DNA of 64,000 bases from Rhodoferax sp. (GCA_040400575.1 JBBAPX010000009.1:46334-110333), one strand, 5' to 3'. Shown: positions 13,536 through 62,704, counted from the first letter of the stretch. Notes: generated by a model not told the origin, from the letters alone. A program made the numbers and translations.

Positions 13536-13547
13536 GTTCACCTCGGC

Positions 13548-44663: not shown

Positions 44664-45833
44664 CTAGGCGCTTGCTGGCCTTGGTTGCGCGAATTTGCTG
44701 TTCGTCGCGCCCTTGGGTGCGGCTTTGCGCTTGGCGCGGGCAAAGTCCCACCACGGCAATACCTTGCGCAAGGCGCGCACCTGACCGCTTAGTTCGGGGG
44801 TGTAGCCGCTGAGCTGCGCTAGCGAGTCGGTCCACGCGCTGCTTTGCAAAAGTTGGCGCAGGCTTTTCAAGGCTGGCTCGTCCAAGGCGGACTTCAGGCA
44901 AACCAGGTGGTAACTTTCTTGCACCAGGGGCAAAAAATGCAAGCCTTGGGCGGTTGCGGCGGCAGCAATGCCCAGCCCAGCATCGGCACTGCCTGAGGCG
45001 ATAGCTTGTGCCACGGCGCTGTGGCTCGGTTCGGTACGCTGATAGCCATGGATGCAATCGCCCACTAGGCCTGCTTGCTGGAGCAATTGGTCAAAGACCA
45101 CGCGGGTCCCGGTGCCTAAAGCACGGTTGACGTAACGCACGCTGGCTTGCTGCACATCGGCTAGGCGGGAAATATCCAATGGATTGCCGGGGGCCAGCAT
45201 CAAGCCTTGCATTCGGGTGGCAAAGCCGATAATTTTGTGCTCACCCGGCTGCAACAGGGGCTTGTAAGTACGCTCGGTCAGTGAGCCTGGCGCCGGGCTT
45301 TGGATCGTATGAAAACCGGCCAGGGTGCAACGCCCTTCGTTGAGCGCGCGAATCGCATCGACACTGCCGCAAAACCGGATGTCCAGGTGCAGCCGCTCCC
45401 CGATGTCCTGCCCGATCGCCAGTGCCTGCTCGCGCAGCAAGGCCAGGCCGTCATCATGGCTGGCATACAGCGTCAGCACCTGTGCGTGCGCATCAAAAGC
45501 GACTGCAAATGCGGTCTCTAGGTCGGCCCGCAAGGCTTCTATCTGCGGTGCAAGGCGGGCCTGCGCCTGCCGCTCGGCCCACATCAGCTTCTCCCCGAAG
45601 GCGCTCAGACGTGCTGACTTGCCCTTGTCCCACTGCAGCAATTCATTACCCAATTCGTTTTCCCAGCGCTTGAGTTCACCCCAGACATGCCGGTAAGACA
45701 GCCCCAGGGCGCGGGCTGCCGCGCTGATGGAGCCTTGGCTGGCCACCGCTTGCAGCAGTTCGATCAGCGCATTGCGCACGGGCCTGGTTTGCGCATCGCG
45801 GCTCAGGGTGTAATGAAAGGCTAGCCTATGCAC
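44664..45833 (-). CDS. ModE/LysR-type HTH regulator fused to periplasmic-binding-type (molybdate/tungstate-sensing) domain
   Basis: GSISAAARALGLSYRHVWG HTH; ASHD, GS.DA, VNRALGTGTR, SHSAVAQAI. Confidence 0.82.
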   Translation of the reverse strand: MHRLAFHYTLSRDAQTRPVRNALIELLQAVASQGSISAAARALGLSYRHVWGELKRWENELGNELLQWDKGKSARLSAFGEKLMWAERQAQARLAPQIEALRADLETAFAVAFDAHAQVLTLYASHDDGLALLREQALAIGQDIGERLHLDIRFCGSVDAIRALNEGRCTLAGFHTIQSPAPGSLTERTYKPLLQPGEHKIIGFATRMQGLMLAPGNPLDISRLADVQQASVRYVNRALGTGTRVVFDQLLQQAGLVGDCIHGYQRTEPSHSAVAQAIASGSADAGLGIAAAATAQGLHFLPLVQESYHLVCLKSALDEPALKSLRQLLQSSAWTDSLAQLSGYTPELSGQVRALRKVLPWWDFARAKRKAAPKGATNSKFAQPRPASA

Positions 45834-45882
45834 GGTGTTACATATCGCAAGGGTTTGGTCAACGCCCTACGATAACGCAGTT

Positions 45883-46617
45883 ATGCAATCTTTTTCCGAC
45901 AGTGCGCTTTTGGCCTTGCAGCTGCTGGTTTCGCTGGATCCCTTGTTTTTCGCTATTGTGGGCCGCTCTTTGGCGGTGAGTGCTTGCGCTTGCCTGCTGG
46001 CTTGCGGCCTGGGACTGGTGCTGGGCGCCTGGCTGGGTGTGGCCCGGTTTGCTGGGCGGGGCCTGGTGTTGACGCTGCTCAACACTGCGCTGGCCGTGCC
46101 CTCGGTGGTGGTCGGTTTGGTGGTGTATTTGCTGCTGTCGCGCTCGGGCCCCCTGGGCCATCTGGGCTGGTTGTTTAGCTTCAAAGCCATGGTGCTGGCG
46201 CAGGCGGTGCTGGTGCTGCCGGTAGCCACCGCATTGACGCGCCAGGTGGTGCAAGACGCCGAGCAGTCGCACGGAGAGCAACTGCAATCCCTGGGCGCGG
46301 GGCGCTGGATGCGCAGTGGCTTGTTGGCCTGGGATGAGCGCCATGCTTTGCTGGTCGTGCTGCTGGCAGCTTTTGGCCGTGCGATTTCCGAAGTCGGCGC
46401 GGTGATGGTGGTGGGTGGCAATATTGAAGGCTTTACCCGGGTGATGACGACCGCCATCGCCTTGGAGACTTCTAAAGGCGACTTGCCCTTAGCCCTGGCT
46501 CTGGGGTTTGCCCTGCTGATGGTGGTGCTGTTGCTCAATGCACTGGTAGCACTATTGCAACGTTGGGGGCAGGGCGGCGGCTTGCGCATGGGCACCTCGG
46601 GGGCGGTGGTGTTGTGA
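45883..46617 (+). CDS. tupB: Tungstate ABC transporter permease
   Basis: FGRAISEVGAVMVVGGNIEGFTRVMTTAIALETSKGD signature; start re-called to 45883. Confidence 0.88.
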   Translation: MQSFSDSALLALQLLVSLDPLFFAIVGRSLAVSACACLLACGLGLVLGAWLGVARFAGRGLVLTLLNTALAVPSVVVGLVVYLLLSRSGPLGHLGWLFSFKAMVLAQAVLVLPVATALTRQVVQDAEQSHGEQLQSLGAGRWMRSGLLAWDERHALLVVLLAAFGRAISEVGAVMVVGGNIEGFTRVMTTAIALETSKGDLPLALALGFALLMVVLLLNALVALLQRWGQGGGLRMGTSGAVVL

Positions 46618-47357
46618 ACGCACAAGTGCAGGTCGTGCAAGCCGGTGTGCAGTTCGGGCCGGATGGTCGCAGCCTCAGGCGCTGGCGCACAAACACAGTG
46701 GCTGCTTTGGAAGGAGTAAGCTTTTCCATCGCATCGGGTGAACGGCTAGCCTTGGTCGGCGCCAACGGCGCGGGTAAAAGTACCTTGCTGCGCCTGCTGC
46801 ACGGCTTGCTGATGCCAGGCGCGGGCCGCGTTCAGCCGCAAAGCGGCTTGCGCCAGGCGATGTTGTTTCAGCGGCCCCACATGCTGCGTATGCGCGTGGA
46901 CAGCCAATTGGCACTGGGCCTGTGGCTGCGCGGCACGCCCTGGCGGCAGGCGCGCCAGCGAATCACGGCGATCTTGGAGCAATTTGAGCTGCAGGAACTG
47001 GCCGCGCGCAAGGCGCACACTTTGTCTGGTGGGCAGCAGCAGCGCGTCGCCATGGCGCAGGCCTGGGCCATGGAGCCGCAAATGTTGTTGCTAGATGAAC
47101 CCACCGCCAGCCTGGATCCGCATGCCAAGGCTGAAGTGGAAAGTCTGTTGCGGGCTTTTTCGCAGTCACGACCACAGGCCAGCTTGGTATTTGCCAGCCA
47201 CAACCTAGGTCAGGTCAAACGACTGGCGACGCGGGTGCTGTATCTCGAGCGCGGGCGTTTGCTGGCTGACCTGCCCGTCGATGATTTTTTTGATTCTGAG
47301 TGCTTGCAGGCGCAATGTCCCTCGGCCTATTGGTTTGTAAAAGGAGAACACTTATGA
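46614..47357 (+). CDS. tupC: Tungstate ABC transporter ATP-binding protein
   Basis: GANGAGKST, LSGGQQQR, LLDEPT; GTGA overlap with tupB. Confidence 0.82.
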   Translation: MNAQVQVVQAGVQFGPDGRSLRRWRTNTVAALEGVSFSIASGERLALVGANGAGKSTLLRLLHGLLMPGAGRVQPQSGLRQAMLFQRPHMLRMRVDSQLALGLWLRGTPWRQARQRITAILEQFELQELAARKAHTLSGGQQQRVAMAQAWAMEPQMLLLDEPTASLDPHAKAEVESLLRAFSQSRPQASLVFASHNLGQVKRLATRVLYLERGRLLADLPVDDFFDSECLQAQCPSAYWFVKGEHL

Positions 47358-48163
47358 AACGTTTTTTATGGACATCTGTGGCGGCTATGGTTTTGTGTAT
47401 TGCGCCAATGGCGACGCTGGCCCAGACCCCTATCGTGATGGCCTCTACCACGTCTACCGAGCAGTCCGGATTGTTTGGGCACCTGTTGCCGGCCTTTAAC
47501 AAAGCGACGGGGGTAGAACTTAAGGTCGTGGCTTTAGGTACCGGTCAGGCTATCGACATGGGCCGACGCGGTGATGCTGACGTTTTGTTCGTCCACGACC
47601 AGGCAGCGGAGGAAAAATTTGTCGCAGAAGGCTTTGCACTCAAGCGCTTTGCAGTGATGTACAACGATTTTGTGCTGGTGGGCCCGGCAATAGACCCGGC
47701 GCAAACCAAGGGCGTGGACATTGTGCAAGCCCTGTCCAAAATCGCCGCAGGCAACAAGGCCTTTGTATCGCGTGGCGACAAAAGCGGTACGCATGCCGCC
47801 GAACTGCGCTTTTGGAAAATGACGGCTGCCGAGCAGGCCAAGGGTAGCGGCTACCGGGAGTGCGGCTGCGGCATGGGCCAGGCGCTCAATATGGCGGCGG
47901 CTACCGGCGCTTATGTGCTGACGGACCGAGGTACTTGGTTGAGCTTTAAGAATCGTGCCGATTTACAAGTGCTGGTGCAGGGCGACCAGCGTTTGTTCAA
48001 CCAATACGGCGTGCTGGCCGTGAACCCGGCCAAGCATCCGCATGTCAAGGCGCAGGACGCGCAAAAATTTGTTGATTGGGTGCTGTCCCCCGCAGGCCAG
48101 GCCGTGATCGCCGCCTACCGGATTGATGGGCAGCAGTTGTTTTTCCCGAACGCCGGAAAATAG
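47354..48163 (+). CDS. tupA: Tungstate ABC transporter substrate-binding protein
   Basis: MASTTSTEQSG (TTS), GTGQA, MYNDF, SRGDKSGTH..E, DRGTW; start re-called to 47354. Confidence 0.9.
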   Translation: MKRFLWTSVAAMVLCIAPMATLAQTPIVMASTTSTEQSGLFGHLLPAFNKATGVELKVVALGTGQAIDMGRRGDADVLFVHDQAAEEKFVAEGFALKRFAVMYNDFVLVGPAIDPAQTKGVDIVQALSKIAAGNKAFVSRGDKSGTHAAELRFWKMTAAEQAKGSGYRECGCGMGQALNMAAATGAYVLTDRGTWLSFKNRADLQVLVQGDQRLFNQYGVLAVNPAKHPHVKAQDAQKFVDWVLSPAGQAVIAAYRIDGQQLFFPNAGK

Positions 48164-49336: not shown

Positions 49337-49533
49337 GTTCCTATTTAGCGTGCCCAAGCCTGGCAACTGGCGCTACACCGAACCACTACCGACAAGCTGT
49401 TTGCGCCAAAGCGTTCAGCCCGGCTAGCTAAGTTTGGTGGTGAAGGCGGCAACGGAGAGTTCGGTAGGCCACATTTGCGAAGTGTTTTAAAGATATAAAA
49501 AGTATCGTTTGAATATTCCTTTGCATGGTTTTT

Positions 49534-49616: not shown

Positions 49617-51779
49617 ATGAGACACATTAACTCCCCCTTCGCATTTATTGTTTTGGTTGCTGCTATTGGACAAGCGTACGCTCAATCCAACACCACACCG
49701 GTCCTAAGTAAAGTTGGCGAAGAGGTCAAAGCCGATGACGCTCAACTGCCCACGGTGACAATTACCACCGGTACCCGAAGCGCCAAGTCTGTGGACAAGA
49801 TTCCAGGTGCAGTTAACGTTGTTTCTAAAGAAGAACTCGCGCATACGCTTGCGCTCACTGAGGATGCTACTGCCGTGCTGGCCCGCACGGTTCCAGGCTA
49901 TGCGGAGTCTTCGCAGGCTATGGCAAACGCCGGTGAGAATCTGCGCGGACGCGTTGCATTGCGTCTTCTCGATGGTGTGCCACAGGGTTCGCCTTTGCGA
50001 GAGGGAAGTCGCAGCGCCAGTTTCACGGATATGGGGCTTGTTGGGCGCATTGAGGTTATCAACGGGCCATCCGCTTCAGAGGGTATCGGCGCGGCTGGCG
50101 GGATCATCAATTACATCTCTAAAGTGCCAACCAAGATGGGCGATGAAATCACCCTGATTTCGCGCTACACCAGCCAGTTTCGAGATGACAGCGCAGGGTG
50201 GAAGCTGGGACTCAACTATGCGCACAAGGATGATACCTTTGACCTTTTAGCTGGCATCTCGCAGATTGATCGCGGCATGAGTTATGACGCCAACGGGCGT
50301 CGTCAAGGAATGAATGCCAGCGGTTCCGTCTTGGACTCAACTGCCAACAATTACTTTGCTAAGGGTGGTTTCAATTTTGGTGCGAACAAGGAGCAGCGCT
50401 TACAGCTCACTGCGAGTAGTTTCAAGATCCTGGGCAAAGGGAACTACATGGCGCTCGACGGCGATCGAGACACGGGCGAAACCAATAGCGCCCAGCGTGG
50501 CCAACCGCTTGGAGCTAAAACTGAATTCAATGACTTTAAGCAGGTCAACCTGTCATATAAAAATGACGAATTTCTTGGGGGCACATTAACCGCTGATGCT
50601 TATATGGCAGATCAAGCGATGCGATTTGTGGCGGAATTAGATAGTGGCAAGCAGGACCCGCTTTTTGCACCCGTAGGTACTCTTATTGAGCAGTCAGAAA
50701 TTGACTCCAGAAAAAAGGGGCTTCGTACTTCTTGGACACGCCAAGATATTTTGGGGCTCAATGGGATGGAACTACGCGCTGGTCTCGATTTAGTGCAAGA
50801 CACTGCGGAACAGCGACTTGCACTTACCAATCGAACCTGGGCGCCGCCGGTGAAGTACAGCAGTGTCGCGCCTTATGCGCAACTTTCTTATGACATCGGG
50901 ATGCTCACGCTGAGCGGTGGATACCGCAGGGAGGGAGGGCAGCTCTTGGTTGACACGTTTACCACGATTTATGCGAACAACCGTTCCCTAGTGGAAGGTG
51001 GAACGCGCGATTACACGGTAGATTTACCCAACATTGGCGCCATAGTGCGTCTACCGCAAGGCTGGTCGGTTTTTGCGTCCTATGGCAAGGGATTTACGCT
51101 GCCCAACGTGGGCATTGCGCTCAGGAATATCAATCGTCCCAATGTGAAAGTCGCTGATATTGATGGTCTGGAAGCAGTGGTAGTGGATAACACTGAAATT
51201 GGCTTCAATTGGCGCGGTGCCATGGGAAATCTGGGCGCTTCAAGCTACCAGTCTAAGTCCGCTCTTGGTGCCAGTGTGTCGATTAGTTCTGTGACGAATG
51301 ACTTTGTGATTAACCGGGCGCCGGTGGACATTACCGGCTTTGAATTTTCTGGTGGGCTTAACCTCAACAAGCAGTGGAAAGCAAGCGCTCTTTACTCACA
51401 GATTCGTGGAAAAACTTCCTATAGTTCTAGCGGCGGCGCACTGGACAAGGAAATGGGTGTACTCGACATCAGCCCTGATAAGTTGGGTCTCTCGGTAACA
51501 TGGAAGCCAGTGGACAAAGCGGAAGTGACGCTAGGTGCAACACGATTATTCTCGCGTGACATCAATGTTGGGCGGAACAACGAGGAACATACTACGGGAT
51601 ACACACTTTTAGACTTGGGATCGAATTATGACTTTGGCCGTTATGGTCGACTTTCACTAGGTGTAGAAAACTTGGAAAATAGGCAATACATCTTGAGCTG
51701 GTCGCAGCTGCCTGGTTTCAAGAATTTCTTTGCAGGACGTGGCCGCGTAGTTTCAATTTCGCACGAAATTAAGTTCTAA
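49617..51779 (+). CDS. TonB-dependent outer-membrane receptor
   Basis: Signal peptide, TonB-box-like TVTIT, plug motif LRG...LLDGVP..RIEVINGP...G.GAAGGIINYISK, terminal Phe. Confidence 0.93.
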   Translation: MRHINSPFAFIVLVAAIGQAYAQSNTTPVLSKVGEEVKADDAQLPTVTITTGTRSAKSVDKIPGAVNVVSKEELAHTLALTEDATAVLARTVPGYAESSQAMANAGENLRGRVALRLLDGVPQGSPLREGSRSASFTDMGLVGRIEVINGPSASEGIGAAGGIINYISKVPTKMGDEITLISRYTSQFRDDSAGWKLGLNYAHKDDTFDLLAGISQIDRGMSYDANGRRQGMNASGSVLDSTANNYFAKGGFNFGANKEQRLQLTASSFKILGKGNYMALDGDRDTGETNSAQRGQPLGAKTEFNDFKQVNLSYKNDEFLGGTLTADAYMADQAMRFVAELDSGKQDPLFAPVGTLIEQSEIDSRKKGLRTSWTRQDILGLNGMELRAGLDLVQDTAEQRLALTNRTWAPPVKYSSVAPYAQLSYDIGMLTLSGGYRREGGQLLVDTFTTIYANNRSLVEGGTRDYTVDLPNIGAIVRLPQGWSVFASYGKGFTLPNVGIALRNINRPNVKVADIDGLEAVVVDNTEIGFNWRGAMGNLGASSYQSKSALGASVSISSVTNDFVINRAPVDITGFEFSGGLNLNKQWKASALYSQIRGKTSYSSSGGALDKEMGVLDISPDKLGLSVTWKPVDKAEVTLGATRLFSRDINVGRNNEEHTTGYTLLDLGSNYDFGRYGRLSLGVENLENRQYILSWSQLPGFKNFFAGRGRVVSISHEIKF

Positions 51780-51792
51780 GCGAATTAACTAC

Positions 51793-53100
51793 ATGCGCCT
51801 GTTTTCCAGGCTGATCATCGGCAGCGCCATCATATTCACGGCCTCTTGGGGTGTACCTACCCTGAATGCGCAAGACATGCAGGCGGGCGCGCTGTACAAG
51901 GAAAGTGGTGTGCGAGCCCGCCCCGCTAAAGACGCTTATCAGTCACTTTTGGCAGGAGCCACGCAAGACAAGGGCTATCTTGGTGGCGTGACCTTGGTAG
52001 CCCAAAAAGGGCAGGTGCTGCATTTGCAAAGTTTTGGTTACCGGGACTTGATGCGGCAGGACCCCATGTCGAGTGACGCGATCTTTCGCATTTACTCGAT
52101 GACCAAAAGTGTTGCCGCCGTAGCAGCCTTGGTTTTGGTTGACGATGGGAAACTCAATCTTGACGCGCCGGTGTCAGGGTATCTCCCAGAGTTTTTGTCG
52201 ATGCAGGTCATGGTAGGCGGGTCTGCTGATAGGCCGCAATTGAGACCAGCCCAGCGTCCGATTACCGCCCGGCAACTGCTAACGCATACCGCTGGCTTCG
52301 CCACGGGTGGCATCGGCATGGAAGAGGCATCCAAGTTGCTGGGACGTCAGGAGCTTCACAGGTCAACGGATCTGCGTGACTTTGCCGGACGGGCCGCACG
52401 CTCCCCGCTGCAAGCTGAGCCCGGCACGCGTTTTCTTTACGACGGTGTCAATTACCAGGTGCTGGGGCGACTGATTGAAGTGGTCAGTGGTTTGCCGCTG
52501 GATGTGTTTATGCAGGAGAGAATTTTCACACCACTGAAGATGTCAGACACTGGTTTTTCGGTATCGGCCGCCAAGCGCGCAAGGATTGTTGACATTACAA
52601 CCATGGGACCTGCCGGCCATTTGGTGCTAGCGGCAGGTCCTTCTGCGGCTAATCCCGGTGCCATGCTCAACCCCTATGTCAGTGCCGCAGGGGGCATGTA
52701 CTCCACGGCAAGCGATTTTTTGCGGTTTTGCCAGATGCTGCTTCAAGGGGGGCAACTGGACGGCGTTGTGGTTCTAAGTGCCAAATCGGTGCAAACAATG
52801 CTTTCCAATCAGCTGGTGCAATCAAATCCGGATCGCGGCCTACAGCCTACAGAATCGGGGCAGGGCGAAGGTCACGGTCTAGGTGGATGGGTGTTGCTTG
52901 AGGGGCATCCTCAGCGGCGCTCCGGATCCGTCGGATCTTTCGGCTGGTCAGGAGCCGCGTCAACCTACTTCATGATCGACCCCAAACAGCAGTTGGTGGC
53001 GATATTGTTGCTCCAACATTTGCCGGGGGATGCGAGTAATGAACTGCCCAAATTGCAGTTTCCGTTTTATCAGCGGGTCTACCAGACCCTCAGTCCATAA
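51793..53100 (+). CDS. Exported serine hydrolase, beta-lactamase fold (family VIII esterase-like)
   Basis: Signal peptide; FRIYSMTK (SxxK), LLTHTAG, F.Y, FGWSGAAST. Confidence 0.9.
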   Translation: MRLFSRLIIGSAIIFTASWGVPTLNAQDMQAGALYKESGVRARPAKDAYQSLLAGATQDKGYLGGVTLVAQKGQVLHLQSFGYRDLMRQDPMSSDAIFRIYSMTKSVAAVAALVLVDDGKLNLDAPVSGYLPEFLSMQVMVGGSADRPQLRPAQRPITARQLLTHTAGFATGGIGMEEASKLLGRQELHRSTDLRDFAGRAARSPLQAEPGTRFLYDGVNYQVLGRLIEVVSGLPLDVFMQERIFTPLKMSDTGFSVSAAKRARIVDITTMGPAGHLVLAAGPSAANPGAMLNPYVSAAGGMYSTASDFLRFCQMLLQGGQLDGVVVLSAKSVQTMLSNQLVQSNPDRGLQPTESGQGEGHGLGGWVLLEGHPQRRSGSVGSFGWSGAASTYFMIDPKQQLVAILLLQHLPGDASNELPKLQFPFYQRVYQTLSP

Positions 53101-53103
53101 TTC

Positions 53104-55323
53104 ATGGCACTCTCTCCCCGCAAACACGCGCATGCGTCAGCTCAACCCAATCTCCCAAAAATGAACCCAGACGATGATTTAGATCGCCCTCCAATGACCA
53201 AGACGGAATATAAATTTTCCCATGTCACCACAGGACGCTATTTGCCAACGCCCGGTAAGGCGCCGGGATGGCCATTCGCGGAGATCGGTCACTGGAAAAT
53301 GGATGTGCTTGGGACCGCCGATGACTGGATTCGGGAACTGCGCGACTGGCGCTCTGAACACTTAACGCGTATTGGCTACGACGACAGTAACTACCGTCGA
53401 CCCGCTCTACAGTGGGCGCAATCAAATTTTGTGCATGCACAAATGATGGTGGAAGATCGTTATTTCTTTGATTCCGCATCTGGAAAATACACCGTCGACC
53501 GCTATTTGGATGACCTTGAGTTGCGGTTTGGTGGTATCGACAGTGTGCTGATTTGGTACGTTTATCCCAATATCGGCATAGATGACCGCAACCAAACTGA
53601 CCTTGCCCATGACATGCCCGGTGGCCTAGCAGGCCTGCGCGAGGCGGTTCATGCCTTTCATCAACGTGGCGTGCGTGTTTTCTTACCCACTAAACCGTGG
53701 GACAAGGGGACTCGTGATCTGGGGCAACAAGACTGGCACGCTATCGCCAAAATCCTGAAGGCCGTAGGCGCAGATGGTATCAACGGTGACACCTACAACG
53801 GTGTGCCACGTGCCTTCTTCGATGCCTGTGAAGCAATTGGTTGCCCGGTGGTGTTACAGCCAGAGTCAACAATTTCGGCAGAGGAGGCGTTGATTTGGAA
53901 TGTGCAAAGCTGGGGCAAAAAAGTGCCAGCCGACGTGATCCCTAGCGTCGCCAAATTCAAATGGTTGGAGCCGCGCCACATGATCAATGTTGAAAATCGC
54001 TGGAGCCGCGACCGCACCAATGACTTTCAATTCATGTTTTTTAATGGCATCGGCTACAACGCTTGGGAAAACGTTTGGGGGATTTGGAATCAGCTGACCC
54101 CACGGGATGCGCAGAGCCTAAAACGCATCGCCGCATTGCAGCGGCAATTTGCCCCTTTGTTGGTGAGTCAGGAATGGCGGCCTTATTTTGCATGCTTGCA
54201 AACTGGCGTTTTTGCAAGTTTATTTCCCTCTGACAAGTGCCAATTGTGGACTATTGTCAATCGCAACGAATATGAAATTGAAGGCGAACAGTTGGTACTA
54301 CCGCACGAAGTCGGAGCGGAGTATTTTGACGTTTGGAGTGGGGTTAAGTTGCAAGCCCGAATGGATGCTGCAGGCAATGCGGTAATTAGTCTGAAGCTGG
54401 AGTCGCTGGGCTACGGCGCAGTTTTGCGTGTAGCGGCTGGTGCCGAGGTTCCCGGCTTAGTGGCTTATCAGGAGCGTGCTGCCCAATTCGCGATAACTCC
54501 GCTTCGTAGCCTGTCTTCTGCCTGGCACTCCCTGGCGCAGCACCTGGTACCTATCGAACGTACAACCGTCGCGGATGTACCACCCACAGGAATGCTTCTG
54601 ATTCCAGCCGCCGACTTTGATTTCGTGGTCAACGGGATTGAAGTCGAGGGACAAACTTGGGAAGGCTTGGACTTCCAATACCCATGGGAGAGTTGCGCGC
54701 GGCGCAGTCACCGCAAACGGATGCAATTGAGTGCGTTTTTCATTGACCAGACTCCGGTAACTAATGCGCAGTACAAAGCCTTTATGGTCGCTTCACGTTA
54801 TCAGCCGACTGATGGGCATAATTTTTTGCGAGACTGGATCAATGGTGCGCCGCTGAAGGGGTGGGACAACAAACCAGTGACTTGGGTTGGCATTGAGGAC
54901 GCTCGTGCCTATGCGACTTGGGCGGGTAAACGGTTACCGCACGAGTGGGAATGGCAATATGCCGCGCAAGGAGTGGACGGTCGGAACTATCCGTGGGGTA
55001 ATGCGTGGAGGGAGGATGCCGTTCCCAAAGTGAACCGTAGCCGAACCTTGCGGCCACCTGATGACGTACAAGCGCACCCACTAGGTGCCAGCCACTTTGG
55101 CGTTCTGGACCTGATCGGAAACGTCTGGCAGTGGACTGACGAATACCGCGATGACCATACCCGCGCGGCGGTCCTTCGTGGCGGAAGCAGTTTCCAGGCG
55201 CAAACCTCACACTGGTATTTCCCACAAGCGTATCGCCTAGACCAGCATGGGAAGTACCTACTGATGGCTCCCTGTAAAGACCGCTCGGGCACCATTGGTT
55301 TTAGGTGTGTCGTCGATGCGTGA
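53104..55323 (+). CDS. Multidomain protein: N-terminal putative glycoside-hydrolase-like barrel plus C-terminal FGE/SUMF1-fold domain (start may be 53161 or 53194)
   Basis: C-terminus VTNAQY, PVTWV...DA.AYA.WAGKRLP.E.EW, YPWG, DL.GNVWQWT, RGGS, IGFRC; N-terminus GADGINGDT. Confidence 0.75.
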   Translation: MALSPRKHAHASAQPNLPKMNPDDDLDRPPMTKTEYKFSHVTTGRYLPTPGKAPGWPFAEIGHWKMDVLGTADDWIRELRDWRSEHLTRIGYDDSNYRRPALQWAQSNFVHAQMMVEDRYFFDSASGKYTVDRYLDDLELRFGGIDSVLIWYVYPNIGIDDRNQTDLAHDMPGGLAGLREAVHAFHQRGVRVFLPTKPWDKGTRDLGQQDWHAIAKILKAVGADGINGDTYNGVPRAFFDACEAIGCPVVLQPESTISAEEALIWNVQSWGKKVPADVIPSVAKFKWLEPRHMINVENRWSRDRTNDFQFMFFNGIGYNAWENVWGIWNQLTPRDAQSLKRIAALQRQFAPLLVSQEWRPYFACLQTGVFASLFPSDKCQLWTIVNRNEYEIEGEQLVLPHEVGAEYFDVWSGVKLQARMDAAGNAVISLKLESLGYGAVLRVAAGAEVPGLVAYQERAAQFAITPLRSLSSAWHSLAQHLVPIERTTVADVPPTGMLLIPAADFDFVVNGIEVEGQTWEGLDFQYPWESCARRSHRKRMQLSAFFIDQTPVTNAQYKAFMVASRYQPTDGHNFLRDWINGAPLKGWDNKPVTWVGIEDARAYATWAGKRLPHEWEWQYAAQGVDGRNYPWGNAWREDAVPKVNRSRTLRPPDDVQAHPLGASHFGVLDLIGNVWQWTDEYRDDHTRAAVLRGGSSFQAQTSHWYFPQAYRLDQHGKYLLMAPCKDRSGTIGFRCVVDA

Positions 55324-57154
55324 AGTTCCCCATATTGAGTTGCATGGCTTACTTGGACAGGCGCTCATTGCAAGTAAAAGCGGGAGGTTGTCTCGTTTCA
55401 TCGTTGGTGCGCAAAGCCCAGCGATCGCAATGTTCGCGCCGGAGCCGGTTAGCCGCAATTTGGAAGGTGATTGGTATGGCGAGCACGCAGGTAAATGGCT
55501 TTATGCGGCGGCCCGTGCAGCCAAGAGAAGCGGCGACCGAGGTCTGTCGGACAATGTGCAGGCGGTAGCCGACTACTTGGTCCGCATGCAAAGCAGTGAC
55601 GGCTACTTGGGAACCTATGCGCCTGTACGCCGGTTTACCCGTAAATCTTCGCCTGGGCCCGTGACATGGGATGGTGCGCCAGAAAAGCGAACCTGGGATA
55701 TCTGGGTCCACAGCTACATGCTTTTAGGCTTGCTGGAAGTCCATAAGAATTTTGCCCGACCCAGCTACCTATTGGCAGCCTGCAAGATAGCCGACTTGTG
55801 TTGGAATATCCTGCATGAGGGGGATATCAACATCACCGAACTTGGGAATCACCACGGGCTTTCGGCCACCGTATTGTTAGACGCTGCAGTGGAATTGTTC
55901 ATGGCGACAAGTGAACCCAGGCATCTGGCACTGGCTGAACTCATTTTGCAGCAAGCCGATCAGCGGCCAGAGTTGGCATTGTTGCGCAAGTCGCTGGGCG
56001 GGGCGGACGCCTCTGAAATCTCAGCGGGTAAAGCCTACCAACTCTGCTGGAATCTAGTGGGTTTGGCCAAACTCTACAAAGTAACTGGCGATCCTCGCTA
56101 TTTGCAGGCCGTGCTGAATATATGGACAAGTATTCGCCTGCATCACCTGACGCTTGGCGGAGGCCCTTGGGGCGGGGTGGGACTGCGTTCGCGCGAGGTA
56201 TTTAACCATCACAGTGTTTTCAGTCCCACGGGCTACGTGGAAACCTGCTCTATCCTCGCCTGGATCCAGCTAAATCGGGAGTTGCACTTAATCACTGGCG
56301 AGGCGAAGTACGCAGAAGAAATCGAGTGTTCTGCTTACAACGACTTGCTCGGTGCCATGGACCCGAATGGTGAGGACTGGTGTTATTACTCTTTCCCCAA
56401 TGGTCGCCGTGTTTACACCACCTATTGGCGTTGCTGCAAGTCAAGTGGCGCTATGGCACTAGAGGAGTTACCTGGCGCTGCCTATGTGCAGACCGATGAA
56501 CGGACGCTGACGCTTAACTTATATGGGCCTAGTACGGCTTCATTTTGGTTTGAAGACGCTGGCAAGGTGAACTTTCAGCAGCACACCGCCTATCCCTATG
56601 ACGGATACGTTCAAATTACGGTAGATCCGGCCCGAGCGGCTAGATTCCTGATTTGTGTCCGCATTCCGTCATGGGCGCACGGCGCAAGTGTCCAAGTCAA
56701 TTCAATCAGTTGCCCAGGCAATGTCACTGCGGACGCGTACTTCGCGATAGACCGACTTTGGCGGTCTGGTGACATCTTGGCCTTAAATTTTCCAATGGAG
56801 CCAGTATTACATCGGCGTTCGAGCTTCAGCTTACAAGAATCTAAGGCGCCGGATGGCGCTGCTGTCATACAAGAGGTGATGCACCTAGATTACTGTGCGA
56901 TAACCCGAGGACCCTTGGTGTTTTCGACGGGTCTTATTGATGGATATAAAAGCGCAGAGACGGTGCGACTCGCGGCAGAGTCGGCAAGTGAGGTCCTGGA
57001 GTTGTTGGCAAGTGCCGGTGCCGATGACCCGCCGGCAATTCGTCTGCATTTGGCAGAACGATCGGCGCTGACCTTTGAGCCTTATTTTTCTGCTGGTGGA
57101 CGCGCAGACGGTACTTGGCGGCTGACTTGGATGCAATTGGCACCCAGTATTTAG
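55316..57154 (+). CDS. GH127-family (beta-L-arabinofuranosidase/aceric acid hydrolase-like) cysteine glycosidase
   Basis: GKWLYAA, DGYLG, GKAY, ETC and CC metal/nucleophile motifs, YPYDG, RIPSWA, RGPLV; start re-called to 55316. Confidence 0.85.
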   Translation: MREVPHIELHGLLGQALIASKSGRLSRFIVGAQSPAIAMFAPEPVSRNLEGDWYGEHAGKWLYAAARAAKRSGDRGLSDNVQAVADYLVRMQSSDGYLGTYAPVRRFTRKSSPGPVTWDGAPEKRTWDIWVHSYMLLGLLEVHKNFARPSYLLAACKIADLCWNILHEGDINITELGNHHGLSATVLLDAAVELFMATSEPRHLALAELILQQADQRPELALLRKSLGGADASEISAGKAYQLCWNLVGLAKLYKVTGDPRYLQAVLNIWTSIRLHHLTLGGGPWGGVGLRSREVFNHHSVFSPTGYVETCSILAWIQLNRELHLITGEAKYAEEIECSAYNDLLGAMDPNGEDWCYYSFPNGRRVYTTYWRCCKSSGAMALEELPGAAYVQTDERTLTLNLYGPSTASFWFEDAGKVNFQQHTAYPYDGYVQITVDPARAARFLICVRIPSWAHGASVQVNSISCPGNVTADAYFAIDRLWRSGDILALNFPMEPVLHRRSSFSLQESKAPDGAAVIQEVMHLDYCAITRGPLVFSTGLIDGYKSAETVRLAAESASEVLELLASAGADDPPAIRLHLAERSALTFEPYFSAGGRADGTWRLTWMQLAPSI

Positions 57155-57155
57155 A

Positions 57156-58058
57156 TCAGGGGAGTGGTCGTCCGGTCACTTCAGCCTGGCGTAATGCGAC
57201 ATTTTGGGCTTCGCGCAGGAATGCCTTAACAAGCCTGATTCGGATGGTGGAGCGCGACCAAAGAACCCCGATGCGCCTTGGATCGAAGGGCTCCGGCAGC
57301 AGTAATTTGATGAGGTTCAGACCTTCCGGCCAAGGCCGTGCCCAATCAGGTACCAGAGAAACGCCCAAGCCACGGTCTACCATGACCGCGATGGCGTTGA
57401 GCGCGTTCATCTCAAAGCGCTCTTGGGGGACGATCCCAACCATCCGCAGGTATCGATCCGCTTGATGCCCACCCCACTGGTTGCGGTCATACCGGATGAA
57501 GGGTTCGGTGGCCAAGAGATCGTGTGGATCGCGACCTTTCATGCTCTTGGGTGCCAATACGACCAACGGTTCCTCGCGAAGTACCAACCATTCAACTCTT
57601 TTGGAAAGCGTAAAAGGGGCCTCCAAAACAATGGCTGCATCTAGTTCGCCGCTCTCTACCGAGGGGTACAAATCTGCGGAATATCCGGGCTTGATATAGA
57701 CCTTGATACGGGGGTGTCGACGTACCATGCCAGCCAAAATATCCGGCAAAATTCCAGTTAATGCATTCGTTCCAGCGCCAATTCTGAGTTCGCCAAAGGT
57801 GTCATTGTCATTGGCAGCTGAATGCAGATCGGTGACATCTCTGAGCAGATTTCGCGCACGCTCCAAGATCCGAGTGCCTGCCTCGGTAATGGACACTGTC
57901 CGCCCTGCTCTAGTGAGTAAGGGAGCGCCAATTTCCCTCTCTAAGGTACGTATTTGTTGAGCCACCGTGGCCGGCGTAATGTTGAGAAGGCGTGCCGCTG
58001 ATGCCATAGATCCATGGTCAACCACCGCCACAAAGGTATACAAAAATTGGGTATCCAT
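57156..58058 (-). CDS. LysR-family transcriptional regulator
   Basis: HGSMASAARLLNITPATVAQQIRTLEREIG HTH; G.GVSLVP. Confidence 0.95.
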   Translation of the reverse strand: MDTQFLYTFVAVVDHGSMASAARLLNITPATVAQQIRTLEREIGAPLLTRAGRTVSITEAGTRILERARNLLRDVTDLHSAANDNDTFGELRIGAGTNALTGILPDILAGMVRRHPRIKVYIKPGYSADLYPSVESGELDAAIVLEAPFTLSKRVEWLVLREEPLVVLAPKSMKGRDPHDLLATEPFIRYDRNQWGGHQADRYLRMVGIVPQERFEMNALNAIAVMVDRGLGVSLVPDWARPWPEGLNLIKLLLPEPFDPRRIGVLWSRSTIRIRLVKAFLREAQNVALRQAEVTGRPLP

Positions 58059-58094
58059 CGTTCATCAGAGCCTCGGGGTAAACAAAAAGTATTG

Positions 58095-58112
58095 TCTAAA
58101 ACTACTATTAGA
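58095..58112. promoter_or_regulatory. Dyad in divergent LysR/citE-like promoter
   Basis: TCTAA-N8-TTAGA in the 109-bp AT-rich intergenic region. Confidence 0.4.
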
Positions 58113-58167
58113 TGGTTTTTATTTTTAATCAATTTCACCATACTGTGGGCCACACTGCAACTTCTTT

Positions 58168-59037
58168 ATGCGAAGCAAACTATTCGTTCCTGCCACGCGC
58201 GCTGATCTGTATTCCAAAGCGTTGGCCAGCCAGGCGGATGCCATTTCATTCGATCTGGAGGACTCAGTAGCCGAAGTTAGCAAGCAAACTGCACGGGAGC
58301 GCGTGCGCGAATTCTTGATGTCTGAATCGGCACGCTCGAGTTCTAAAACGCTCATCGTGCGCGTTAACGCAATGCGTACGCCGCATTTTGAGGCGGATGT
58401 CTTTGCCGTGGTCCAGACCGGGCTTGCGATCTTGAACATTCCAAAGTGTGAGTCAGGGCAACAAGTTCAAGATGGCCTGCAGGTCATCGCTTGCGCGGAA
58501 GCCTTGAACCGTAATTCCAGCCCGGTGTCCATTCTGGCTAACGTTGAAACGCCAAAGGCTTTGCGCTGTGCCTTCGATATTGCCAGTGCGGACGCCCGAA
58601 TCGTCGGGCTTCAGATAGGTTATGCCGACTTGTTTGAACCGCAAGGAATCAGGAGAGACGATGCGCTGAATGTTCATGCTGCGTTATTTGCGCTTCGAAT
58701 GGCTGCGGCTGAAGCCGGCGTCTTCGCATATGACGGTGCATTTCCCGATTTGCAGGACGCTAGCGGATTTCGTGCGGAGTGTGAGATGGCTAGAAAAATG
58801 GGTTTTATAGGAAAAACTTGTATTCATCCAGGTCAGATTGAGACGGTAAACCAAATCTTCGGCCCAGCCCAACACGAGATTGATTTTGCATTGCGGGTAC
58901 TGGCCGCCGTAGGAGATACGAAAAATATGAACCTTGGCGCGTTCCAATTGGAGGGAAGAATGATTGATAGGCCGTTTATCCAAAGGTCCAGAAGAATTGC
59001 CGATTTAGCGCAAAAGATGGGGATATTGTCCCTATGA
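58168..59037 (+). CDS. CitE-like CoA-ester lyase (HpcH/HpaI aldolase/citrate lyase family)
   Basis: RSKLFVPA, FDLEDS, VRVN, PK.ES, VET, GYADL, GKTCIHPGQI, GRMID.P. Confidence 0.92.
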   Translation: MRSKLFVPATRADLYSKALASQADAISFDLEDSVAEVSKQTARERVREFLMSESARSSSKTLIVRVNAMRTPHFEADVFAVVQTGLAILNIPKCESGQQVQDGLQVIACAEALNRNSSPVSILANVETPKALRCAFDIASADARIVGLQIGYADLFEPQGIRRDDALNVHAALFALRMAAAEAGVFAYDGAFPDLQDASGFRAECEMARKMGFIGKTCIHPGQIETVNQIFGPAQHEIDFALRVLAAVGDTKNMNLGAFQLEGRMIDRPFIQRSRRIADLAQKMGILSL

Positions 59038-60236
59038 GCGAAACTTTGAGCAAGGACGAGGCGCCGCGTGGGCCGTTGACTGGTATCCGCGTGCTGGATC
59101 TTAGCGCCTACATAGCTGGCCCTTACGGTTGCACGCTACTTGCTGACATGGGTGCAGAAGTAATCAAGATTGAACCACCCAGCGGTGACAACCTTCGCCG
59201 ATATCCGTCGACCTTAGAAGCCGAAAGCCGGGCTTTTCTTGGAATTAACCGTAGCAAGCGCGGATTGGTTTTGGACCTGAAAAAAGAACAGGGTTTGCTG
59301 GTCCTCGATCGCATGCTCGGCTCGGCCGACGTACTGGTTCACAATTTCCGACCCTCTGTTGCGCCGCGCTTGGGTATCGCCTATGAGAGATTCCAGGCCA
59401 GTCATCCGCGGCTGATCTATTGCGTGGTCAATGGTTATGGCGAGTCAGGCCCTATGAAAGACTATGCTGGCTATGACCAGGTTTTGCAGGCAATGACCGG
59501 AATTTGCGCTATGCAGGGCAAGCACGGGCAACCACCAGAAATTGTGTACGGCTCTGTGGTGGATTACTACGCTGCAGCAATGGTCGCAAGCGGTGTCAGT
59601 GCCGCACTGTTTGAGCGCGAGCGAAACAATCGTGGCCAATATGTTGGCGTCTCCTTGCTAAGAAGTGCGTTGGCTATGCAATCGGCGCGGTTCATTTGGG
59701 CTGAAAGTGAAAGCCGTGATATCGGTCGCGACATGCGCTCTGGAGGGGTCACGGGTCTGCATCCGGCGCGAGAGGGCTTCATCTATCTATCCGCCAACAC
59801 GCCGCATTTTTGGCGCGCACTTTGTGAAAAAGTCGGACTCAGCTCTTTGGCCGACGATCCGCGGTATGACAGCGTGCGCAAGCGCGCCGATTGTGCCAAC
59901 GAAATCTTGCCTCAGCTGCACAATGCCTTGCTGTCCCATACCGCTCTCGAGTGGGAACAGATATTTGCGCAGGATGTACCCAGTGCGGCCGCACGTTCAA
60001 TTGCTGATATGTTCGACCACCCGCAAGTGCTTGCCGAGGAAATGGTGACTAATCTGGAGCATCCGTCGGTTGGGCGCTACAAGGGCCTTACCAAGGCAAT
60101 CAAATTTAGTAAAACGCCGGGCCCTTCCCCGTTCGCTGCACCCACCCTCGGTGAGCATTCAGACGATGTGTTAGCCGAGTGCGGGTATTCGCATAATGAA
60201 ATTGCGCAATTGCGCCAACAGGGCGTCATCAAGTGA
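59034..60236 (+). CDS. Class III (CaiB/BaiF) CoA-transferase
   Basis: VLDLSAYIAGP, GAEVIKIE, NRSKR, HNFRP, GYD, catalytic-Asp region VVDYYAA, APTLGEH; ATGA overlap. Confidence 0.93.
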   Translation: MSETLSKDEAPRGPLTGIRVLDLSAYIAGPYGCTLLADMGAEVIKIEPPSGDNLRRYPSTLEAESRAFLGINRSKRGLVLDLKKEQGLLVLDRMLGSADVLVHNFRPSVAPRLGIAYERFQASHPRLIYCVVNGYGESGPMKDYAGYDQVLQAMTGICAMQGKHGQPPEIVYGSVVDYYAAAMVASGVSAALFERERNNRGQYVGVSLLRSALAMQSARFIWAESESRDIGRDMRSGGVTGLHPAREGFIYLSANTPHFWRALCEKVGLSSLADDPRYDSVRKRADCANEILPQLHNALLSHTALEWEQIFAQDVPSAAARSIADMFDHPQVLAEEMVTNLEHPSVGRYKGLTKAIKFSKTPGPSPFAAPTLGEHSDDVLAECGYSHNEIAQLRQQGVIK

Positions 60237-62704
60237 TTCAACTAAGGCCGTGTCAATTTATGAAAGGTATTTTCTACCTCGCATTGTCTTTGCGCAGAAC
60301 TGCCGTGGCCCTATGGGTAGCTGGTGTTGGCATGGGTGTGTGCTTGCCTACATTGTCTGCCCATGCAGGCAATCTTGTGACCCTGAAGACGGGTACGCTG
60401 GGGCCTGCGCCTGGCAATGGGCTGGTACGCACTTTGGCTGCTTTGGATGGCCAGCTCCTCGTGCTGGGACAGGATGCAAGTTGGGAGTTCGATGAAGCTA
60501 GCCAGTCCTGGAAGAAGGTCGACTGGCACGCGCAACAACCGATACAAGCCTTAGCATTGGACAAACGGCAGGCTTATGTTTTTCTTGGCACTGAGCGCGA
60601 TGGAGTGGCGCAGCGGGTTCAAAAACTGACATTAGAGTTGGGCCGCTTAGGCTCACTACCTATGCCTTCCTTGCCCATGCACTTGCTTGATTTACAGGCG
60701 GCGATGATGGGCCCAGTCCTTTACGTTGTAGGCAACGATAAGGATGGAACTTTTACGCAGTTCGCATTGGACACGAGTGCAGCGCAACCCCATTGGACCG
60801 CTCATCGCGTAACGCAGCTCAAGGGAAAACCGACCTCGCTCGTCGGTCAGCGTTCCGCTTTGTATGCCACGGTGAGGCCGGCCGGTGGTGCTAGAGACCA
60901 CCTGTGGCAATGGACGCCATCGGGCGGATGGATCGAAAAAAATGCACTATCTGGCACTGTGGTTCAACATGCCGCGCGGCCAGCCGGTCAGGCGCACGTC
61001 ATCTATTTAGTCCAACCGTTAGCTGCGCTTTCTCCTGCTCCTGCAATGATGATGTATCACACCATTACGGGCTCGTGGGCGACATTGGATGATCCCAAGG
61101 CCCTAGGGGCTTTTGATGGCACAGCCTGGCGCAATGGCATCGCTTGGCAGCACCCTGCCAGCGCAGGCGGAGTTGAAATTGACTTCGCAGAAATCGAGTC
61201 TGGGAAACTACTGCTTACCTGGCTGGATTGGGTGGTCATTGTTTTCTACCTGACGGCTATGTTAGGTATGGGGCTGTATTTTTACCTGCGTGAAAAGCGT
61301 ACTTCAACCGCTGATTTTTTCGTCGGCGGACGTTCTATCCCCTACTGGGCGGCAGGCGTCAGCTTGTATGCAGCGAACACCAGCTCAATTAGTTACATTG
61401 CCATTCCAGCCAAGGCGTTTGAAACCAACTGGCAATACCTAACCAACAACCTAATCGCTGTACTTGGTTTGATGTTTGTTGCGATTTGGATAGTACCGGT
61501 CTTGCGGCGACTCGATTTGATGTCAAGCTTTCAATACCTTGAAACCCGCTTTCATCCCGTCATACGCACACTGGCAAGTGCTTTGTTTATGGCCGTACAA
61601 ATTGGTAGTCGGATGAGCATTATTCTTTTCTTGCCGTCTTTAGCAATCGCTACGATGACTGGTATTGACGTCATATGGAGCATACTGATCATGGGCGTGT
61701 TCACCATGATCTATACCGCTTTGGGCGGTATGAAAGCAGTCGTCTGGACCGATGTAGTCCAGCTGGTGGTCAAAATGGGAGGAATATTTTTTACTATCGG
61801 ATTTGTCATCTATATGCTCGATGGCGGCGCGGGTGAATTGATAAAAGTAGCCCAGGCCGAAGAGAAGACAAAGCTATTTGATTTCAGCTGGGACCTGACC
61901 AAGGCCACCGTTTGGGGCTTTTTGTTCCTCGTGCTATTTGACGTGGTTCTCACCTTTCCAAAGGACCAGGTGCTGATGCAGCGTGTGCTGTCCACGCGTT
62001 CGGACAAGGATGCAGAACGGTCTGTTTGGACATTTGCCGCCATCATGATTCCAGGGGGATTTTTATTCTATGGCGTTGGTACTGCCTTGTATGTCTACTA
62101 CAAGAATCACCCCGAGAGGATGAACCCCTTGCTCACCATCGATGCGACATTCCCACTATTCATCGCTGCGGAGTTACCTATGGGCGTGCGTGGTCTGATC
62201 GTAGCGGGAATTCTGGCTGCTGCGATGGCGACGCTGTCGAGCATCATGAACAGTGTCGCTACGCTTGCGTCGGTAGATTTTTATGAAAAATGGGCGAAAA
62301 ATCCAACACCAAAATCTAGCGTTCATTTTGCTGAGGTGATGACCGTGGTGGCAGGCATTCTTGGAATGGGTGTCGCACTGTTATTGACGCGCTACGACAT
62401 CCATTCCTTATTTGATGTATCGATTGAGTTAGCTGGTCTATTGGGTGGCGGATTCGCTGGCGCCTACACCTTGGGCATGTTTACAAGGCGTGCTAATTGG
62501 CAGGGCGTTGCAATCGGTGTCGGCGTCAGTATCACATTGACCACTGTAGCTTGGTTCATGAACCTGGTACACCCATATTTTTATCTCGCTATTTCAATCT
62601 TTGTTTGCATCGCAGTGGGCTATATCGCCAGCTGGATGTTCCCGGCGCCATCTCCAAAGTCTCTCGAAGGTCTGACCATTTATTCTAAAAATTCTTCGCT
62701 TTGA
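60233..62704 (+). CDS. Sodium:solute symporter (SiaT-like) with exported N-terminal Kelch-like beta-propeller (start 60233 or 60260)
   Basis: Signal peptide ending AHA, about 290 aa beta-rich domain, then LDWVVIVFY..FFVGGR..WAAGVS, YLETRF, GGMKAVVWTD, DQ..MQR, AAAMATLSS.MNS. Confidence 0.85.
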   Translation: MIQLRPCQFMKGIFYLALSLRRTAVALWVAGVGMGVCLPTLSAHAGNLVTLKTGTLGPAPGNGLVRTLAALDGQLLVLGQDASWEFDEASQSWKKVDWHAQQPIQALALDKRQAYVFLGTERDGVAQRVQKLTLELGRLGSLPMPSLPMHLLDLQAAMMGPVLYVVGNDKDGTFTQFALDTSAAQPHWTAHRVTQLKGKPTSLVGQRSALYATVRPAGGARDHLWQWTPSGGWIEKNALSGTVVQHAARPAGQAHVIYLVQPLAALSPAPAMMMYHTITGSWATLDDPKALGAFDGTAWRNGIAWQHPASAGGVEIDFAEIESGKLLLTWLDWVVIVFYLTAMLGMGLYFYLREKRTSTADFFVGGRSIPYWAAGVSLYAANTSSISYIAIPAKAFETNWQYLTNNLIAVLGLMFVAIWIVPVLRRLDLMSSFQYLETRFHPVIRTLASALFMAVQIGSRMSIILFLPSLAIATMTGIDVIWSILIMGVFTMIYTALGGMKAVVWTDVVQLVVKMGGIFFTIGFVIYMLDGGAGELIKVAQAEEKTKLFDFSWDLTKATVWGFLFLVLFDVVLTFPKDQVLMQRVLSTRSDKDAERSVWTFAAIMIPGGFLFYGVGTALYVYYKNHPERMNPLLTIDATFPLFIAAELPMGVRGLIVAGILAAAMATLSSIMNSVATLASVDFYEKWAKNPTPKSSVHFAEVMTVVAGILGMGVALLLTRYDIHSLFDVSIELAGLLGGGFAGAYTLGMFTRRANWQGVAIGVGVSITLTTVAWFMNLVHPYFYLAISIFVCIAVGYIASWMFPAPSPKSLEGLTIYSKNSSL

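Follow-up and report, generated by a model that had tools for sequence, protein, structure and literature searches.

A CitE-like lyase and class III CoA-transferase pair without a hydratase in a conserved glycoside cluster of Rhodoferax and other bacteria

Introduction

Stand-alone CitE-like lyases and class III coenzyme A (CoA) transferases are among the most often misannotated catabolic enzymes, and the locus described here raises the question of which acid such a pair handles when no hydratase accompanies it. The locus lies in a 64,000-nucleotide stretch of a Rhodoferax sp. genome (GCA_040400575.1 JBBAPX010000009.1:46334-110333), hereafter the window, in which positions 57156-60236 encode a LysR regulator, a CitE-superfamily acyl-CoA lyase and a class III CoA-transferase. 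A first-pass annotation of this DNA had proposed that the substrate is an acid already carrying its hydroxyl group, which is activated with CoA and then cleaved directly. Our analysis places the pair in a conserved gene cluster that occurs in numerous bacteria of soil and fresh water and for which we found no description. Among its proteins are members of a glycosidase-like family without a name and of a lyase subfamily that is new. We consider it probable that the cluster serves the LysR-controlled scavenging of a hydroxy-acid riboside, with the transferase and lyase catalyzing the last two steps.

A coupled lyase and transferase without a hydratase

The regulator, lyase and transferase are intact open reading frames (Table 1), with the LysR gene divergent from the lyase and with the stop codon of the lyase overlapping the start of the transferase by 4 nucleotides. 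Among 400 sampled genomes of the host family, 35 carry an ortholog of the transferase (61-71% identity), and a lyase ortholog was found in all but three of these; a contig end or the incompleteness of the genome accounts for each exception. More than 4,000 proteins are related to the transferase with E < 1e-100, among them natural lyase-transferase fusions (P0088, P0107). Because the lyase ortholog accompanies the transferase in nearly all 35 genomes and fusions exist, the coupling of the two genes is not due to chance.

As the first-pass annotation had noted, no hydratase stands with this pair. MaoC, Ich-type and crotonase genes are absent from 49.6-62.7 kb of the window; the only MaoC of the genome sits on a different contig, and about 18 kb separate the cluster from the nearest crotonase. 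Neither PF13452 (Ich-type) nor citF was found in the host genome (3.09 Mb, 99.98% complete), citD not having been searched separately, so that the annotation was also correct with respect to citF. The hydratase of the itaconate pathway (Ict/Ich/Ccl, RipABC) is thus found in neither cluster nor genome. Across about 60 fetched loci we encountered only one crotonase, 7 kb from the transferase. Among the matches listed for 32 genomes, the module has no PF13452 gene closer than 10 kb; in seven of those genomes, by contrast, Ccl-type lyase paralogs have PF13452 at a distance of 1-5 kb. The absence of a hydratase is therefore a conserved feature.

By comparison with characterized routes, a transferase and lyase acting without a hydratase follow a known logic and require no new principle. 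For example, use of (S)-citramalate needs only Ict and Ccl, as found in P. putida with the P. aeruginosa cluster (PMC9875883). Together with the fusions and the conserved lack of a hydratase, this precedent favors the proposal that a pre-hydroxylated acid would be CoA-activated and cleaved directly.

The transferase itself matches PF02515 over its full length (380 bits) and is thus a class III enzyme. Its D177 aligns with the catalytic Asp of 10UH and SUGCT, and this residue is present in 42 of 42 ortholog rows. It scores below every named NCBIfam class III model with which it was compared, namely Frc, CaiB, succinate-glutarate and mesaconate transferases (best 210 bits against a cut-off of 442). 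In a tree, the orthologs form one clade with support of 100/99 against three distant paralogs, and the window transferase groups with the members from glycoside clusters (support 96/99).

A conserved glycoside cluster and its predicted regulon

The transferase-carrying genomes of the family fall into two types. In 14 of the 35, the pair belongs to a glycoside cluster in which the order of genes is lyase, sodium:solute symporter (SSS), LysR, esterase, receptor, PfkB, FGE (labeled formylglycine-generating enzyme), GH127 and transferase. The same cluster occurs beyond the family in Rhodanobacter, Luteimonas, another genome of that group, a genome that belongs to a different class, and two more assemblies. 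In all, about 20 genomes have it, from Burkholderiales, Xanthomonadales and one class besides. Cultured carriers include Roseateles toxinivorans, Rhodanobacter glycinis and Variovorax. In the glycosidase clusters of other genomes the lyase is located 12-18 kb upstream. The copy in the window (49617-62704) is rearranged and lacks PfkB; it comprises the TonB receptor, PF00144 esterase, 'FGE' protein, GH127, LysR, lyase, transferase and SSS symporter. Receptor orthologs in clusters of other genomes are 49-64% identical, and the window LysR is 60-78% identical to the regulators of glycoside clusters, compared with mostly 45-56% for those of the second type.

This second type, found in 21 of the 35 genomes, is a small glycosidase-free module with a divergent LysR, lyase, TctC and transferase, and often a LigI-like Amidohydro_2 lactonase. 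Of 23 glycosidase-free modules, 10 have the lactonase, and three have a 2-hydroxyacid dehydrogenase nearby. A TauD-family dioxygenase with its own LysR is near four of these modules (L137, L140, L142 and L149), probably through shared ancestry, as these group in the tree. A Paraburkholderia module (L112:11275-15072) combines the lactonase with a protein of the short-chain fatty acid transporter family and with a PrpD-family enzyme; the latter is nearest to cis-aconitate decarboxylase and IDS epimerase, and is a candidate stereo-isomerase feeding the pair.

Promoter sequences link the lyase to the glycosidase genes as well. A 37-nucleotide near-copy is common to the lyase and receptor promoters and is found nowhere else in the genome. 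When a matrix trained on 14 lyase promoters from other genomes was scanned over the 3.09 Mb, the lyase promoter ranked first (29.4 bits) and the receptor promoter second (26.1 bits), with the next match at 23.5 bits; about ten other clusters likewise show a match upstream of their receptor gene. Because these two promoters rank first and second in the genome, the putative sites point to a single LysR regulon that covers the receptor and lyase operons. The first-pass annotation had allowed that the pair might be an ordinary lyase system unrelated to the glycosidases, and both gene order and the common promoter motif tie the pair to them.

The symporter has its best match in 5NV9 (the sialic acid transporter SiaT) and keeps the equivalent of Arg135, which we take to be the carboxylate ligand of SiaT. 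Its membrane domain is 76-81% identical in most clusters. The N-terminal soluble domain of about 280 residues (60233-61198) is only 27-38% conserved, versus about 79% for the membrane part, and its likeness to Kelch propellers is weak; it is possibly a mutarotase-like or binding domain. The PF00144 esterase is swapped for an unrelated PF00756 esterase in 10 other clusters, and the two are never found together. Because 19 of 20 glycoside clusters hold exactly one of these unrelated esterases, one ester or lactone bond presumably must be opened. A citrate-siderophore reading, suggested by a weak resemblance of the receptor to RhtA, was dropped since it explains neither the glycosidases nor the kinase.

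Downstream of the pair, a transaldolase follows the transferase in two clusters, and no gene for a cleavage product is conserved among the clusters. In one genome a block resembling type I restriction-modification genes follows the transferase (L127:10459-18997), which suggests an insertion hotspot. In four clusters (L128:4465-7038, L200:12424-15225, L119 and L134) the FGE and GH127 genes are separated by an inserted gene, whose product of 860-930 residues combines ThuA and cytochrome c.

The lyase subfamily and its substrate pocket

The lyase, which is the sole CitE-family match of the genome, has the hallmarks of the CitE-like superfamily. The predicted model (predicted local distance difference test, pLDDT, 95.5) is a TIM barrel, and all catalytic residues are kept (D29, E31, D32, R65, E127, D154 and D267), including the Arg (R65), the Mg-binding Glu/Asp (E127/D154), the water-binding E31/D32 and the lid Asp (D267). 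The best profile match is the malyl-CoA lyase 4L9Y, relative to which the protein has a gap in place of the insertion that follows strand 6 in malyl-CoA lyases; neither this feature nor the pocket residues described below place it in that group. Nor does it classify as CitE proper, as judged from its score against TIGR01588 (187 bits, cut-off 443), the failure to find citF and the presence of Asn90 where the CitE proteins of E. coli and Enterococcus have a beta-4 Arg. It also falls below the cut-off of the RipC/Ccl model (158 bits against 375). By these sequence comparisons, the lyase and the transferase each constitute a distinct subfamily, that of the lyase being new.

The signature of the lyase subfamily is K4, S27, N90, N125, Q149, A191, T217 and C218. 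The methyl group of pyruvate is hemmed in by a Pro and a Trp in malyl-CoA lyases (PMC3832036, also the source of the residue roles given above), and these positions are Ala191 and Ser/Thr217 in the subfamily. Lys4, Ser27, Asn90, Asn125 and Gln149 are located on barrel strands, two residues before catalytic positions. This polar layer is nearly invariant in 35 orthologs from both module types, and is absent from 14 paralogs and from the CitE proteins of E. coli and Enterococcus. Because the layer is shared in this manner, both module types probably act on one and the same acid, whose polar arm would exceed a methyl group in size and be bound unlike citrate.

These residues bear on the acids that the first-pass annotation had put forward. 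They argue against plain citrate, malate, citramalate and 3-hydroxy-3-methylglutarate (HMG), and favor a 2-substituted malate that is larger and polar and would be set free from a riboside. The first-pass proposal is partly supported, and its simplest example acids are disfavored. Alternatively, the pair might be an ordinary citramalate, malate, HMG or citrate route, resembling Ict/Ccl or a stand-alone citryl-CoA lyase, that adjoins a sugar locus by chance. CitE-family lyases accept both (S)-citramalyl-CoA and (S)-malyl-CoA and are promiscuous, the sufficiency of Ict plus Ccl for (S)-citramalate would fit, and Ser/Thr217 is common to true CitE. Nevertheless, we regard this explanation as improbable given that the lyase is below the CitE and RipC cut-offs and lacks the beta-4 Arg, that the same genomes keep separate hydratase-linked Ccl-type clusters, and that the link to glycosidases is conserved and accompanied by the common promoter motif.

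Glycosidases and a probable ribose link

The cluster encodes two glycosidase-like proteins, and the first of these has no family name. The N-terminal 440 residues of the 'FGE' protein match no Pfam family and no NCBIfam model, and AlphaFold (pLDDT 92) predicts a TIM barrel with a beta-sandwich. The nearest folds are GH129 (5OPQ, Z 18.6, root-mean-square deviation 3.8 over 336 aligned residues), GH13, GH27 and GH36, with fold Z scores of 16-19, 8-15% identity and no profile match; these families are mostly alpha-acting retaining enzymes. A candidate catalytic pair, D229/E254, is conserved in at least 90% of 88 sequences. The family has 2,310 representatives at 50% clustering, but an actinomycete-centered sample of 251 genomes yielded no copy of the domain, and neither did 150 further Verrucomicrobiota. 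One relative with 50% identity (L210:15535-17775) appears to be secreted and stands alone in a genome without lyase or transferase orthologs.

The second protein belongs to GH127, as its residues of the Glu/Cys zinc and catalytic motifs, E301, E316, C318, C380 and C381 are intact in an alignment to a solved GH127 structure, and the motifs are present in 15 of 15 orthologs. Known GH127 substrates include 1,2-cis furanosides, and by analogy an alpha-D-ribofuranoside would present the same C1/C2 arrangement as a beta-L-arabinofuranoside.

The sugar is probably ribose, because ribokinase-like kinases recur both in the clusters and beside the barrel glycosidase, in addition to the transaldolase noted above and the occurrence of FGE genes in ribose loci. 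A ribokinase-like PfkB is encoded in 18 of 20 glycoside clusters, and in L117 its place is taken by a true ribokinase with a LacI regulator. Three Acidobacteria have relatives of the barrel protein (50% identical) next to genes for a true ribokinase and for a TonB receptor, joined at two of the loci by LacI and a sugar permease. These loci do not contain this lyase or transferase; L117 and these three loci are the only ones with a ribokinase above the TIGR02152 cut-off. A 39% relative of the barrel protein also neighbors PfkB. The ThuA plus cytochrome c protein is found again near one Acidobacterial ribose locus (L219). In Bacteroidetes ribose loci an FGE gene has been listed, and the targets of the hydrolases there have been called enigmatic (bioRxiv 10.1101/574913).

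The host genome has a PfkB ortholog (58%) on contig C3, together with a nucleoside hydrolase and a BMP-type ABC transporter, and by homology this protein can supply the kinase step missing from the window cluster. Its surroundings (L198:5647-12450) are probably a nucleoside salvage locus.

A different sugar chemistry would apply if GH127 released a branched plant wall sugar acid, of the aceric acid or apionate type, from rhamnogalacturonan II. GH127 includes an aceric acid hydrolase, and the symporter resembles an acidic sugar transporter. However, the match to the aceric acid hydrolase model is weak (115 bits, cut-off 950), there are no other pectin enzymes, no dehydrogenase that would make a CoA-accepting carboxylate is conserved (the ThuA-cytochrome c protein being restricted to 4 clusters), and the ribokinase is left unexplained. 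This origin of the acid is very improbable.

A proposed scheme and its candidate acids

If the cluster scavenges a hydroxy-acid riboside, its proteins could act as follows. The TonB receptor would import the compound, the secreted esterase would open an ester or lactone, and the SiaT-like symporter would take the acidic glycoside inward. The context argues strongly that GH127 and the barrel glycosidase would then free D-ribose, to be phosphorylated by a ribokinase encoded elsewhere in this genome. The freed acid, predicted to be a 2-substituted (S)-malate whose arm is polar or anionic and exceeds a methyl group in size, would be CoA-activated by the transferase, according to the chemistry known for its family. 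Finally, retro-aldol cleavage by the lyase would give acetyl-CoA and a 2-oxo acid without a hydratase.

The TctC and lactonase neighbors suggest a lactone-forming di- or tricarboxylate. The leading named candidate, which we offer tentatively and with some doubt, is (S)-homocitrate as in ribocitrin, the linkages of which are alpha-configured; cleavage would yield acetyl-CoA and 2-oxoglutarate. Ribocitrin is a tririboside built on (S)-homocitric acid, made by an unknown biosynthetic route, and it has been tentatively detected in freshwater Streptomyces (PMC12381216, PMC13136089). By Cahn-Ingold-Prelog order, the homocitrate matching the accepted (S)-substrates would be the (S) form and not the (R) form of lysine synthesis. 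Products of (S)-homocitrate need no further enzyme, which fits the missing conserved downstream gene. Ribocitrin is one known compound that would fit most parts, short of proof. A weak lead for the source of a ribosylated acid, a Ter-associated module with a CitE-like enzyme, phosphoribosyltransferases and HAD, was set aside since such transferases normally give beta-ribosides. Neither the cluster nor a breakdown of homocitrate via a CoA-transferase was described in any paper of our literature search, outside of which most subscription papers lie. It is somewhat unlikely, though conceivable, that the cluster is a pathway for ribocitrin-type (S)-homocitrate ribosides, with an alpha-ribosidase from a new family of glycoside hydrolases and the first (S)-homocitrate CoA-transferase/homocitryl-CoA lyase route.

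The same scheme could instead act on another lactone-forming acid, such as itatartarate (2-hydroxyparaconate), hydroxycitrate or a 3-substituted malate (for example, an isocitrate stereoisomer), and would then give hydroxypyruvate, oxaloglycolate or glyoxylate. A 2-hydroxyparaconate lactonase is part of the Pseudomonas cluster (PMC9875883). The lactonases and 2-hydroxyacid dehydrogenases of the glycosidase-free modules agree with such an acid, as do the polar pocket and the Gly or Ala at the position where malyl-CoA lyases admit an alpha-substituent. However, no product enzyme is conserved in the clusters, which favors a product already in central metabolism, and we know of no riboside of itatartarate, hydroxycitrate or isocitrate-type acids. 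We therefore consider these acids rather unlikely.

Several points weigh against the riboside scheme, and against ribocitrin in particular. All activities in the scheme are predicted. A shared glycosidase fold does not give an activity, and beta-acting families are also among the fold matches of the barrel. The barrel protein also occurs without the lyase and transferase, and its ribosides may thus have other aglycones. The PfkB of the clusters falls just under the ribokinase cut-off (257 versus 300 bits for TIGR02152), and the kinase is missing from the window cluster. A secreted esterase would be easier to reconcile with an acylated substrate than with lactone formation in the cytoplasm. The orientation of the signature residues toward the substrate is deduced from strand register in a model without ligand. 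Moreover, ribocitrin is little reported, and its abundance may not explain a trait present in about 3.5% of the family sample.

Comparison with known systems

One of the closest known systems is the itaconate cluster of Pseudomonas aeruginosa and Cupriavidus (Ict, Ich and Ccl; PMC9875883, PMC12290011), which likewise combines a class III CoA-transferase with a CitE-family lyase. In contrast, the cluster described here has no Ich and no acyl-CoA dehydrogenase, and is tied to glycosidases and ribokinase. The lyase is also distant from Ccl (111 bits to 8KHL), and the barrel layer that is polar here is apolar in Ccl. With citrate lyase CitDEF the lyase shares homology to the beta subunit and a small residue at the beta-8 pocket position, but citF was not found, the transferase is of class III and Asn replaces Arg at beta-4. 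Malyl-CoA lyases are paired with a succinyl-CoA:malate CoA-transferase in the 3-hydroxypropionate bi-cycle. Those of Rhodobacter and Chloroflexus (PMC3832036) have the same catalytic Arg, Glu, Asp and lid Asp, and differ in having Pro and Trp for Ala and Ser/Thr, in their lyase-specific insertion and in lacking a context of catabolic scavenging.

The Bacteroidetes ribose utilization systems (rus; bioRxiv 10.1101/574913) have in common with this cluster type a TonB receptor, a ribokinase (here a ribokinase-like PfkB in most copies), FGE-annotated genes and variable hydrolases or esterases for unknown ribosides. The present cluster is proteobacterial and predicted to be LysR-controlled; its transporter is of the SSS type, and the acid aglycone would have a dedicated route of its own. 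The barrel protein resembles GH129, GH13, GH27 and GH36 in its overall fold and in the Asp and Glu located where strands 4 and 5 end, but its low identity, the lack of any model and the fusion to an FGE-like domain set it apart.

One subfamily of lyases and one of transferases, present in about 9% of the sampled family, thereby gain a bounded substrate class. The cluster also brings to light a large glycosidase-like family without a name, which carries 'formylglycine-generating enzyme' labels and is repeatedly linked to ribokinase, at a time when enzymes for O-ribosides other than nucleosides are poorly known. A dedicated and widespread scavenging system points to an environmental metabolite so far not recognized as abundant, and if the ribocitrin-type reading were true, such ribosides would be common in soil and fresh water.

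The island and its surroundings

The 13 kb stretch that holds the cluster (Table 1) has a lower guanine-plus-cytosine content, 0.51-0.56 compared with about 0.59. Of 40 sampled genomes of the genus, only 2 yielded a lyase ortholog, a rarity that would agree with an island gained by horizontal transfer. Its ends showed no terminal repeats and no mobile genes.

Table 1. Genes and operator-like sites of the cluster, in window coordinates
Feature	Position	Strand	Domains and remarks
Operator-like site, probable LysR box	49494..49533	+	Upstream of TonB receptor operon; matrix match 26.1 bits
TonB-dependent receptor	49617..51779	+	PF00593+PF07715
Beta-lactamase-family serine esterase, signal-peptide-like N-terminus; ester/lactone hydrolase slot	51793..53100	+	PF00144
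Unnamed glycosidase-like protein: N-terminal TIM barrel and beta-sandwich, C-terminal FGE-sulfatase-like domain; proposed alpha-ribosidase	53104..55323	+	
GH127 glycosidase, intact Glu/Cys motifs	55295..57154	+	PF07944+PF20736
LysR regulator	57156..58058	-	PF00126+PF03466
Operator-like site between LysR and lyase	58081..58120	+	Matrix match 29.4 bits
CitE-superfamily acyl-CoA lyase, distinct subfamily	58168..59037	+	PF03328
Class III CoA-transferase, distinct subfamily, catalytic D177	59034..60236	+	PF02515
Sodium:solute symporter closest to SiaT, fused to probable Kelch-like N-terminal domain	60233..62704	+	PF00474

Just upstream of the island, window positions 44664-48163 hold tungstate/molybdate-type ABC transporter genes with a ModE-like regulator, and a molybdopterin enzyme subunit is encoded at 11292-13541. 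An MmgE/PrpD-family gene lies at 39656-41026, about 9 kb upstream of the island and outside the stretch of low guanine-plus-cytosine content.

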